NCBI GenBank assembly: GCA_003567005.1
Contig: PXBF01000096.1
Span: 23,544-87,543, forward strand
Length of the DNA stretch: 64,000 bases
From: PVC group bacterium
GTDB taxonomy: Bacteria > Verrucomicrobiota > Kiritimatiellia > UBA8416
Direction of reading: 5' to 3'
Shown: piece by piece, positions 27,001 through 30,000 of the stretch
How positions within the stretch are numbered: the stretch's first letter is position 1
Layout: each line of letters opens with the position of its first letter
Position numbers: made by a program

Positions 27001-30000
27001 GGACCAACAAACCCCATGGCTAACAGTACCAGATCGGCTTCTACGACAAAGGCGGATCCTTCCACTTCTTCCGGCACAGGACGCTCAGCGCCTTCGGGGA
27101 ACACCCATTTGACTTCACAGCAGTGCAAACGCTTGACTTTGCCATTTTCGCCTTCCAGCCGTTTGGTATTTACCGACCAACGACGCTCACAACCTTCCAA
27201 ATGACTGCTGGATGTGCGCATCTTGTTGGGCCATTCGGGCCAAGGCGTCGATTCCGGACGTTCCTCGGGCGGTTTCGGCATAATTTCGAATTGCATGACT
27301 TTCAGAGCACCTTGCCGGATGGAGGTACCTACACAATCGGACCCCGTATCACCACCACCAATGACAACGACGTGTTTACCTTCCGCAGAGATTGGTTTGA
27401 GCGCGGAAACATCTTCCCCCCCATTGCGCATATTTTGCTGGGTGAGGAAGTCCATTGCAAATTCAATACCATCAAGTTCCCGTCCTTCAACAGGCAAGTC
27501 GCGCGGTTGCCGTGCACCCCCAGCCAGCAGAACGGCATCGAAACGCTTGCGGATGTATCCATACGAGACATCGCGCCCTACTTCAACACAGGTTTCAAAT
27601 TCGATCCCTTCCTGCTTGAGAATGTCAATGCGCCGCTCTACTACCCATTTTTCCAGTTTGAAGTCCGGAATCCCGTAACGCAGCATGCCTCCAGGATATA
27701 AATCGCGCTCGTAAACAACCACATGAAGTCCTGCTTGATTCAAGCAATTGGCGGCTGCGAGACCCGCCGGACCTGAACCAATCACAGCCACGCGCTTATC
27801 GCTACGCGTTTTCGGTATGCGTGGCTGCACATAACCACGCTTAAAACTGTTTTCGATAATCGTAAGTTCAATCTGACGAATCGCGACGGGCTCGCGATTA
27901 ATACCAACCACACAGGATGCCTCACAGGGCGCCGGACAAATGCGCCCTGTAAACTCGGGAAAACTACTGCCTTCCTGCAACAGTTCCAGTGCTTCTTCCC
28001 ACTGGCCATGATACACCTGATCATTAAACTCGGGAATCGCATTAACGACCGGACAACCAACACTACTGGCTGCGCTCTGGCAAAAAGGTATGCCGCAGTC
28101 CATGCAACGCCCAGCCTGCTCATTAAGCTGCTGCTCGTTGAGCATTTGTTCCACTTCCTGATAGTCGCGCTTGCGCTCTTCTACCGGACGATACCCCGGA
28201 TCGCGACGCGGTATCTCTATAAAACCTCTTTCCCTATGACGCATCTTTCATTCCCTCGTATTTCAGACCACAGACTACAGACAACAGACAGCAGACCCTA
28301 TTGAAAAAAACATGAAACTCGTAAGCTTAGCTGCAACTCGCGCAACAGGGTTGGCCTCTTTTTCCACAGCCTGAATCAAGCCAGCCAAGGTTCGCGACAC
28401 AACATCGCCCTGACCATCCAACTCTGCATACTTTTCTTCGGACAAATACCCTAGACGATGAGCAAGGTGCATAAAATATCTCGTTTCATTTAGAGAGCCC
28501 CTGGATATATAAAGGAAGTGAAGATAATCCTTTTGGGAGGACCTTGACGAGCCTTCAACAATGTTGGTTGCCACAGAGTATGCCGCTCGACGCAGTTGGC
28601 TTGTCAAAGCATAGACCTCATCCTTAGGAAAAGACTTCGTTAACCTATAAATTCCAACAGTTAAATCGTCACTCAACTGCCAAGCCTTGATTTTCCTATA
28701 ATCTCGCATATCTAGTTCACCAAAAGTCTGTAGTCTGCGGTCTGTAGTCTGCAGTCTGCCTAATGCTGTTCCACTTCCTTGCGCTTGGTTCTCTCGTCTT
28801 CCCGACTCAACCGGCCAAGCGCTTTTTTGTATTCCATCGGGAACACTTTAATAAAACGTGGAACTTGGCGCTCCCAGTCAGCGAGGATTTTCTTTCCTTT
28901 CGGACTGCCGGTATAGTCAACATGCCGGTTGAGCAAGTCGTATAATGTCTGCCGGTCCTCTTCTGTGTTTACCAGCTCCAGATCCAAGGTATCCAAATTG
29001 CAATGATTATCGAAGTTGCCAGTTTCGTCGTATACATAGGCGATACCACCACTCATGCCGGCACCGAAATTGACGCCGGTTTGCCCGAGGATGACGGTGG
29101 TTCCTCCGGTCATGTATTCGCAACCATGATCGCCAACACCTTCCACTACGAGAGTGGCACCACTGTTACGAATGGCAAAACGTTCACCAGCTTGCCCATT
29201 GAGATAGGCCTCACCGCCGGTAGCACCATAAAAGGCGACATTGCCAGCAATCATATTCGAAGCCGGGTCGTAGTCTGATCCCTTGTATGGACGCACAATG
29301 ATCTTTCCACCGGAAAGACCTTTACCAACATAGTCATTGGTCTCGCCTTCGAGCGTCATAGTGAGACCATGTGCAGCAAAAGCTCCAAAGCTTTGGCCGG
29401 CAGCCCCGCGATAACGAAGCTGAATGGTGTCATCCGGTAATCCTGTATGGCCGAAACGACGGGCAATCTCACTGGAGACAATCGTTCCCGCCGTGCGATG
29501 GACATTACGAATGTCGATTTCCTTTTCAAAGGATGTGCCTGCATCGATGGCCTTGCAGACGTCATCCAGATATTGGAAATCCAATGCGCTTTCCAATCCG
29601 TGGTCCTGCTTCTGCGTACAATAACGTTCTTCCTGCTTGGCATCCACATAATGCAGGACGCGCGAAAAATCCAGGCCACGTGTTTTCCAGAAGTCGATCG
29701 CCGGATTGGTTTCAAGCAGATCAGCACGCCCAATCATCTCGTTGACCGTGCGTATGCCGAGCGCCGCCATAATCTCGCGCAACTCTTCGGCGACCATGCG
29801 CAGGAAGTTAACCACATGCTCAGGCTTTCCGGTGTACATCTTGCGCAGTTCCGGATCTTGCGTAGCAACCCCGACCGGACAGTTGTTGGTGTGACATTTG
29901 CGCATCATGATGCAGCCGCACACCACCAGCGGTGCCGTGGCAAAACCATACTCTTCGGCTCCCAACAATGCCGCCACGGCGACATCGCGCCCCGTTTTCA

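Follow-up and report, generated by a model that had tools for sequence, protein, structure and literature searches.

The insert between gltB and gltD

Glutamate synthase is encoded by the minus strand in the stretch of DNA analysed here, a window of 64,000 nt from contig PXBF01000096.1 (assembly GCA_003567005.1) of a PVC group bacterium of the class Kiritimatiellia. The spacer between the genes of its two subunits, gltB and gltD, is filled by a 515-nt insert on the same strand: the array (CAGACnn)x5, a gene of the PF05635/TIGR02436 four-helix-bundle family and the array (GUCUGnn)x5. This cassette of a gene between inverted heptamer arms may be a messenger RNA counterpart of the intervening sequences (IVSs) known from 23S rRNA. 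All positions are those of the window unless a contig or locus is named.

In the direction of transcription gltB (28760..33319, minus strand), the open reading frame (ORF) of the 1519-aa large subunit with Pfam matches to GATase_2, Glu_syn_central, Glu_synthase and GXGXG (E 1e-81 to 1e-179), ends with a stop codon at 28760-28762. The 5' arm, CAGACUGCAGACUACAGACCGCAGACUACAGAC (28726..28758, minus strand), begins 1 nt past this stop, and 16 nt separate it from the ATG of the four-helix-bundle gene (28275..28709, minus strand; 144 aa), which has a candidate ribosome-binding site, GGUGA, 7 nt on its 5' side. The last codons and the TAG stop of this ORF fall within the 3' arm, GUCUGCUGUCUGUUGUCUGUAGUCUGUGGUCUG (28264..28296, minus strand). 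After the 3' arm come 19 nt, AAAUACGAGGGAAUGAAAG (28245..28263, minus strand), a retained leader with the gltD ribosome-binding site, and then the ATG of gltD itself (26790..28244, minus strand), which encodes the 484-aa small subunit, matches Pfam Fer4_20 and Pyr_redox_2 and has orthologues of 73-91% identity in relatives.

On the plus strand the arms read CAGACcaCAGACtaCAGACaaCAGACagCAGAC (28264-28296) and GTCTGtaGTCTGcgGTCTGtaGTCTGcaGTCTG (28726-28758), five heptamers each and inverted to each other, and a repeat search lists them as one inverted pair of 33 nt with 82% complementarity. They had been described in an original prediction made from the sequence alone, whose coordinates, copy numbers, orientation and reading of the transcript are exactly what the sequence contains. 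It had put the arms 2 and 20 bp from the gltB stop and the gltD start; the close adjacency stands, at measured distances of 1 and 19 nt. The lower GC content that it had noted for the gene is likewise real but smaller than stated, at 0.44 between the arms against 0.53 in gltB and 0.54 in gltD.

The cassette is most probably transcribed as part of the gltBD operon. A scan of the minus strand from 28000 to 29100 found no promoter-like site, a weak negative as it used consensus sequences only, and an Rfam scan of 27900-29100 matched no family. Paired in register, the arms of the transcript form 27 Watson-Crick and 3 G.U pairs over 33 positions, the other 3 being mismatched, with a duplex energy of -50.8 kcal/mol compared with -17.9 +/- 4.0 for a shuffled arm. 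When a 541-nt segment was folded, 30 of the 33 stem positions had a pair probability of 0.98-1.0, which bears out the predicted stem of about 33 bp enclosing the gene. The z-score of the whole segment was just -1.74; it is therefore the terminal stem, rather than the interior, that carries the signal. All 25 core positions of the stem pair, whereas the spacer positions form Watson-Crick pairs at only 2 of 8.

The assignment of the gene to the IVS protein family also holds, as its product matches PF05635 over residues 5-109 with 123.6 bits (cut-off 33.8) and TIGR02436, 'four helix bundle protein', with 120 bits (cut-off 24). By sequence similarity the nearest solved structure is PDB 2GSC (Xanthomonas XCC0516, E 7e-23), which is reported to be a homopentamer (PMC4990558, citing Lin 2006). 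The protein looks functional, to judge from its conservation, because 54 columns are invariant across 18 homologues of 61-74% identity, and these include R41, S45, N49 and E52, present and unchanged in all 19 sequences. The family motif GxxRxxxSxxxNxxE (PMC3936711) is found, with Q38 in place of the leading G in the subfamily of the window protein. This subfamily also keeps a hydrophobic C-terminal tail of 28 residues (..AKLTSLxVLSxGSAVCGLQSAV; 28275-28360), the end of which is the translated GTCTG array; typical members of the family, about 120 aa long, have no tail. The tail may be a membrane anchor. Matches of the Avd type were also obtained (bAvd in Pfam, E 1.4e-6; NF033474, 33 bits). Identity with Avd, the accessory protein of diversity-generating retroelements, was rejected on the latter score, which is under the model's cut-off of 80 bits, and on the neighbours being gltB and gltD. 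The two proteins share a homologous four-helix-bundle fold, but no reverse transcriptase, template or variable repeat lies near the window gene.

The gltB-gltD junction was compared in 25 relatives. In six family-level relatives the spacer is only 11-22 nt long and has no repeats. The ancestral spacer was therefore short, and on this comparison the four-helix-bundle cassette is an insertion into it, as the original prediction had proposed, with the empty sites that it had suggested looking for. Members of the same genus vary at this position. G001 has a 46-nt spacer without arrays and G002 a 105-nt spacer with (AGTCGAR)x4 and (GGCGTCS)x4. In G003 and G004 a non-coding element of about 270 and 374 nt, respectively, lies between inverted octamers, (GCTGAAAA)n and (TTTCAGCN)n, and octamers like GTTGCTYN are present in these spacers. 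Neither coding potential nor a remnant of PF05635 was found in the two elements. Each is followed by two leftover GTCTG units exactly at the window's right-hand boundary, beside which the gltD leader is conserved (junction and leader ..GTCTTCAGTCTAATAATACGAGGGGAAAAGATG in G004 and ..GTCTGCGGTTTGAAATAAAAGGGAATATGAGATG in G003). Compared in this way, the spacer is a hot spot within the genus, at which repeat-armed elements come and go.

Two parts of these spacers have counterparts in the window's own genome. Arrays of the octamer GCTGAAAA recur there at more than ten sites. A 62-nt non-array motif with the hairpin GCTGCCGAAYAGGCAGC, found in the G004 spacer (L007), is 95% identical to G000:C199:5704-5765, G000 being the window's genome, and looks like a small mobile non-coding element.

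Heptamer arms in the genome and in the family

The assembly of the window's genome (3.7 Mb in 199 contigs, 87% complete) contains three PF05635 genes, of which the other two are 22-31% identical to the window copy. The copy on contig C160 lies between (GAGTGGC/AAGTGGC)x3 and (GCCACTC)x5, and that on C11 between (CGAACAT)x4 and (GTTCGAT-like)x4. The search for such flanks at other four-helix-bundle genes, which the original prediction had suggested, thus finds all three copies of the genome armed by inverted heptamers, each with a different unit. A search for CAGAC/GTCTG arrays of at least three units found 17 places with an exact core and about 35 when each core was permitted one mismatch. Short tandem arrays in the genome most often have period 7 (54 arrays), compared with 13 arrays for period 6 and 18 for period 8. 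As the assembly breaks at arrays (of the 72 with period 7 or 8, 19 are no more than 300 nt from the end of a contig), these counts are minima.

Some of these arrays stand apart from any four-helix-bundle gene. In the window a solitary CAGAC-type array, CAGACCGCAAACCACAGACCGCGGACAACAACAGAC, followed by (GGCGTCS)x3, occupies 33694-33760, in the spacer between two plus-strand ORFs upstream of gltB; GGCGTCS is also the unit that fills the gltB-gltD spacer of G002. A gene-less inverted pair of three and four units, about 150 nt apart, is found at C63:13880-14074. The hairpin at C14:3737-3889, considered again below, starts 4 nt past the stop codon of a thioredoxin-fold gene and stands between co-oriented genes, as in Geobacter metallireducens. 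At C42:137-471 arrays of GCTGAAA, GACGCAGAA and CAGACnn fall within the reading frame of an ORF for a 339-aa glycosyltransferase-like protein (177-1196), where they may either be translated as a linker or break the gene. In the armed cassette at C199:2373-3505 a small gene lies upstream of a toxin gene with a PIN domain (2655-3068; PIN_3, E 5e-17), and past this toxin-antitoxin pair comes a second PIN gene (C199:3523-3924).

The survey was extended to relatives in three samples, all of them made up of the best-scoring members of their searches. Sample 1 comprised 80 loci, 78 of them usable, taken from genomes that represent species in many phyla, among them Verrucomicrobiota, Chloroflexota, Acidobacteriota, Nitrospirota, Patescibacteria, Pseudomonadota, Bacteroidota and Aquificota. 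Sample 2 was the best 30 PF05635 matches in 151 genomes of the host's class, 127 of which carry the family with 1-17 matches per genome. Sample 3 consisted of 80 metagenome relatives (55-71% identity; 71 usable) of the genome's own third copy, which belongs to a different subfamily. Arrays were detected by simple ungapped scores, and a locus was called armed at an inverted-match score of at least 13. On this scale 54/78 loci of sample 1 were armed, compared with 2/234 random placements in the same loci, as were 23/30 of sample 2 and 64/71 of sample 3 (0/71 with shuffled flanks). Together with the three own copies this gives 144 armed loci out of 182 (about 79%), and the arms expected of four-helix-bundle genes in the original prediction are thus borne out well beyond the window's genome.

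The form of the arrays was analysed in 113 loci, namely samples 1 and 2 with the own copies. An upstream array was present in 88 loci and a downstream array in 88. The period was 7 in 153 of the 176 arrays, 8 in 17 and 9 in 6, and the commonest number of units per array was 4. The matched stem had a median length of 30 nt (interquartile range 25-33). The arrays lie close to the ORF: a median of about 17 nt separates them from the start codon, and the stop codon often falls within an array. In 34 of 51 loci the upstream unit was the reverse complement of the downstream unit to within 1 nt, compared with 3.6% of shuffled pairings, although some 60 different heptamers occur among 76 upstream arrays. 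The unit changes with the protein: among protein pairs of at least 70% identity, 80% had heptamers agreeing to within 2 nt, compared with 43% of pairs at 55-70% and about 10% of those below 45%. The subfamily of the window protein retains a GAC/AGAC core across phyla until protein identity drops to about 53-58%, and that of the third copy keeps an AAC core.

The unit counts of the two arms were uncorrelated (rho 0.05), and Shine-Dalgarno-like 4-mers were not enriched in upstream units (19, with 16.9 +/- 2.8 expected). Stop codons were in mild excess in upstream units (42/76 against 34.3 +/- 3.5) and in stronger excess downstream (30/77 against 19.0 +/- 3.2). The gene was co-oriented with both neighbours in 44 of 70 loci, which is not clearly above the level of any gene. 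An Rfam scan of 40 related loci placed none in or beside rRNA and matched no other RNA family. Close homologues of the window protein are encoded in other settings: in the gap separating wzm from wzt, behind a PIN toxin-antitoxin pair and beside glycosyltransferases. That homologues lie on short contigs was not counted as evidence, since contigs are short throughout the collection.

The related contigs L155 and L156 encode an identical four-helix-bundle protein (P0003) and are 99% identical over 1.9 kb, until they diverge inside a GTCTG array near L155:3320; past this breakpoint they carry different toxin-antitoxin cassettes, which on sequence comparison suggests exchange of cassettes by recombination within the arrays. 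In the metagenome relatives L155 (2400-3500) and L116 (2900-3600) the 5' end of a wzt-type ABC-ATPase gene (..VSKKFCR) has a duplicate of about 60 nt on the upstream side of the four-helix-bundle cassette, and the wzt frame itself contains more CAGAC...GTCTG arrays, placed between ..FRSNPE and EFWALRDISF. In L116 there are five GTCTG arrays, spaced by AATTGAAAG.

Paired arrays have been described before without reference to this gene family. Xanthomonas genomes contain 70-75 inverted pairs of GGGAATC heptamer arrays each, and heptamers are in excess in Nostoc, with neither a function nor a gene family given (PMC4692102). G. metallireducens has dozens of paired tandem arrays of hepta-, octa- and nonanucleotides on opposite strands, many of them between operon genes such as proB and proA or moaA and mosC, which were read as sites of unknown global regulators (PMC2700814). 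The window arms are paired arrays of this kind, with at least three tandem 7-nt units at each of two convergent intergenic sites, and the likeness extends to the 7-8-nt unit, the number of units (about 4-5 per site) and the frequent position within operons. The Geobacter class 3 unit, MTYCTGA, is the very unit that flanks the PF05635 genes of L134, L144 and L145, and the GTTGCTYN-like octamers of the G003 and G004 spacers are a further point of likeness. Unlike the window cassette, the Xanthomonas and Geobacter arrays were described without cargo or four-helix-bundle family, and were read as G-quadruplexes or as sites of the IHF/HU type.

It might be argued from these precedents that the arms are simply slippage-prone heptamer microsatellites, comparable to the short tandemly repeated repetitive (STRR) sequences of cyanobacteria, the Xanthomonas GGGAATC arrays and those of Geobacter. 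They would gather in intergenic spacers, perhaps as regulator sites or as hairpins for mRNA stability, and would form no functional module, the genes merely landing nearby. The predominance of period 7 in the genome, the many gene-less array sites in it, the unrelated arrays in the same spacer of same-genus relatives and the gene-less pairs between operon genes in G. metallireducens and Xanthomonas (PMC2700814, PMC4692102) all fit this explanation. It is nevertheless judged improbable. Against it stand units that match across the gene in 34/51 loci (3.6% by chance), arms at about 79% of the sampled genes when fewer than 1% of control placements are armed, units that follow the protein phylogeny across phyla, and arms that hug the ORF.

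The arms could also be terminal inverted repeats that belong to a transposable element of the classical type, or to a miniature inverted-repeat transposable element (MITE), with a transposase encoded elsewhere. Inverted termini, filled and empty sites and gene-less derivatives would be expected of such an element, and the 19 of 72 arrays near contig ends, together with the recurrence elsewhere in the window's genome of the 62-nt piece of the G004 spacer element, can be read in the same way. The cassette shares with MITEs and with the repetitive elements REP (repetitive extragenic palindromes) and BIME (bacterial interspersed mosaic elements) its small size, intergenic position, hairpin and tolerance in operons, and in both cases gene-less copies outnumber gene-bearing ones. 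There are also differences. The arms are tandem arrays of short units, not unique inverted repeats, and they vary from copy to copy within a genome. The cassette ends show no target-site duplication, as the flanks (TAG-G before CAGAC and AAATAC after GTCTG) contain no direct repeat, and none was seen in the inspected loci L112, L114 and L116. The cassette has neither transposase nor RAYT, and the three gene copies are only 22-31% identical. Around 60 heptamers in 76 arrays, with unrelated arms within a single genome, are unlike the traces of one transposase acting in trans. A classical transposon or MITE is thus a very improbable explanation.

A proposed intervening-sequence-type cassette and the origin of arm complementarity

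ORF-bearing IVSs were reportedly found in the 23S rRNA of Leptospira by Ralph and McClelland in 1993. In Coxiella burnetii the IVS is a 428-nt element of 23S rRNA with an S23p (PF05635) ORF and a 28-bp terminal stem, and it carries ahead of the start codon 3-4 tandem GACAGAT heptamers, the number of which varies among strains (PMC4990558). RNase III excises it, cutting at the first repeat; its ORF is decaying and the protein is probably not made, whereas the stem is kept and processed, and a mobile origin was discussed by the authors (PMC4990558).

The window cassette resembles these IVSs in several respects. It has a gene of the same protein family, is of similar size to the Coxiella element (about 495 nt and 428 nt), encloses its ORF in a stem of tandem heptamers, about 28-33 bp long (CAGACnn x5 here, GACAGAT x3-4 in Coxiella) and, if it is indeed co-transcribed with its neighbours, lies inside a host transcript. 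It differs in standing between two protein-coding genes and not in helix 25 or 45 of 23S rRNA, and in having an ORF that looks intact and conserved; RNase III excision has been shown for Coxiella only. The host genome does encode an RNase III, with catalytic domain and double-stranded RNA-binding domain (G000:C175:7667-8455).

The explanation favoured here, by somewhat more than an even chance, is that the window cassette is an IVS-type selfish cassette in mRNA, whose arms form a stem of the RNase III type. A PF05635 gene with two inverted arrays of about 4-5 heptamers would have inserted into the short gltB-gltD spacer. In the operon transcript the arms could zip up in any of several registers as a double-stranded RNA stem some 30 bp long, because both are built from the same 7-nt unit. 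The stem would set the gltB stop beside the gltD ribosome-binding site before any cut, and host RNase III would then cut it, as in the Coxiella IVS, and free the cassette from the operon transcript. Co-transcription with gltBD, this cleavage, any benefit to the function of the operon and the way in which the module moves are inferred. The IVS-like mobile cassette of the original prediction is partly supported, since the insertion, the protein family, the survey of arms, the Coxiella parallel and the host rnc gene all agree with it. Its further proposals, that the stem loops out the gene and makes the insertion tolerated, are conjectural, and two sequence tests give no sign of selection on RNA pairing as such.

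This and a number of other points weigh against an IVS-type cassette. If the stem were under selection as sense RNA, G.U should be favoured over A.C among the mismatches of the sense-strand stem. A smaller first sample gave 70:49 (p=0.066), but when it was enlarged to 92 loci the ratio was 100:88 (p=0.42), which is no support. Nor do the two arms mirror each other in the order of their unit variants (z=0.47, 32 loci). The absence of a wobble excess and of mirrored order, together with the 2 of 8 paired spacer positions in the window stem, therefore indicates that the complementarity comes from the shared unit and not from base-by-base compensation. Such a pattern fits recognition of the unit by a protein, or a copying process, at least as well.

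Arms are also found without the gene. The original prediction had named arrays lacking the gene in relatives as evidence that would speak against it, and this is partly what was seen: gene-less arrays and two leftover GTCTG units are present in the gltB-gltD spacers of same-genus relatives, and the arms probably spread without the gene. In the window's genome a gene-less inverted pair, CAGACx3 and GTCTGx9 just 74 nt apart, lies at C14:3737-3889, and CAGAC-type inverted arrays bracket a VapBC cassette at C199:2373-3505. The figure of 79% is limited to the subfamilies and thresholds used, since the loci are those with the best scores in two subfamilies and one class. Finally, a cut by RNase III between gltB and gltD could harm the operon instead of sparing it.

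The arms have in addition a handedness. The gene's 5' arm is purine-rich in 74 loci against 12 (61 against 13 distinct units, p=1.4e-8), and the 3' arm is pyrimidine-rich in 70 loci against 18. By symmetry this handedness holds on both strands.

An alternative to the IVS-type cassette that accounts directly for the shared unit is that the arrays are primarily putative protein-binding sites (iterons), acting as DNA or as single strands, most likely for the encoded pentameric protein or for a process that it drives, with the RNA stem a by-product. Each gene would bear its cognate heptad on both sides, and gene-less pairs would be non-autonomous derivatives served in trans, in the manner of MITEs. 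Precedent is available, as a protein of plasmid pSM19035, the omega repressor, binds 7-bp heptads that are repeated in tandem, in direct or inverted orientation, and Avd, a homologue of the four-helix-bundle protein, binds nucleic acids. The absence of a G.U excess and of mirrored unit order fits binding sites, as does a conserved core beside freely varying spacer positions (CAGAC with YR in the window, the AAC core in the subfamily of the third copy). Three own copies with three different units, and a single CAGAC-type gene copy alongside about 35 other CAGAC arrays in the genome, also fit. The heptamer co-diverges with the protein and the GAC/AGAC core persists to about 53-58% identity across phyla, but co-divergence is expected under simple co-inheritance too. 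The commonest unit count, 4 and not 5, leaves one unit per pentamer subunit unsupported, and the Coxiella stem is kept and processed although the protein is probably not made (PMC4990558). Taken together, these points make binding sites a rather unlikely explanation, though the main rival. An arrangement like that of TRAP, with one unit bound by each subunit of the pentamer, was rejected on the unit count.

A further proposal goes beyond passive binding sites. Gene and arms may be a self-recognising module, in which the pentameric protein binds its own 7-nt unit and this binding creates, maintains or moves the arrays, so that gene-less pairs are non-autonomous offspring. This is put forward as an outside possibility, decidedly unlikely at present.

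Meaning for the four-helix-bundle family

A literature search found no paper linking PF05635 genes to flanking heptamer arrays in general. PF05635 genes have been noted inside cas operons (PMC3936711). The present analysis links three strands of literature, namely ORF-bearing IVSs, the paired inverted heptamers seen in Xanthomonas and Geobacter, and the presence of four-helix-bundle genes at cas loci. In the samples studied the gene usually travels with inverted heptamer arms, and it does so far more often in mRNA operons than in rRNA. There is a practical consequence for annotation, as the arms break short-read assemblies, can fall inside reading frames and may be misread as regulator sites or CRISPR-like repeats.

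We know of no function for PF05635 proteins since their discovery in rRNA intervening sequences in 1993. The role of this very common family is thus an old puzzle that has now become testable. If gene and arms do form a self-recognising module, it would explain both the intervening sequences of rRNA and the excess of heptamers in Xanthomonas, in Geobacter and in the STRR sequences of cyanobacteria.

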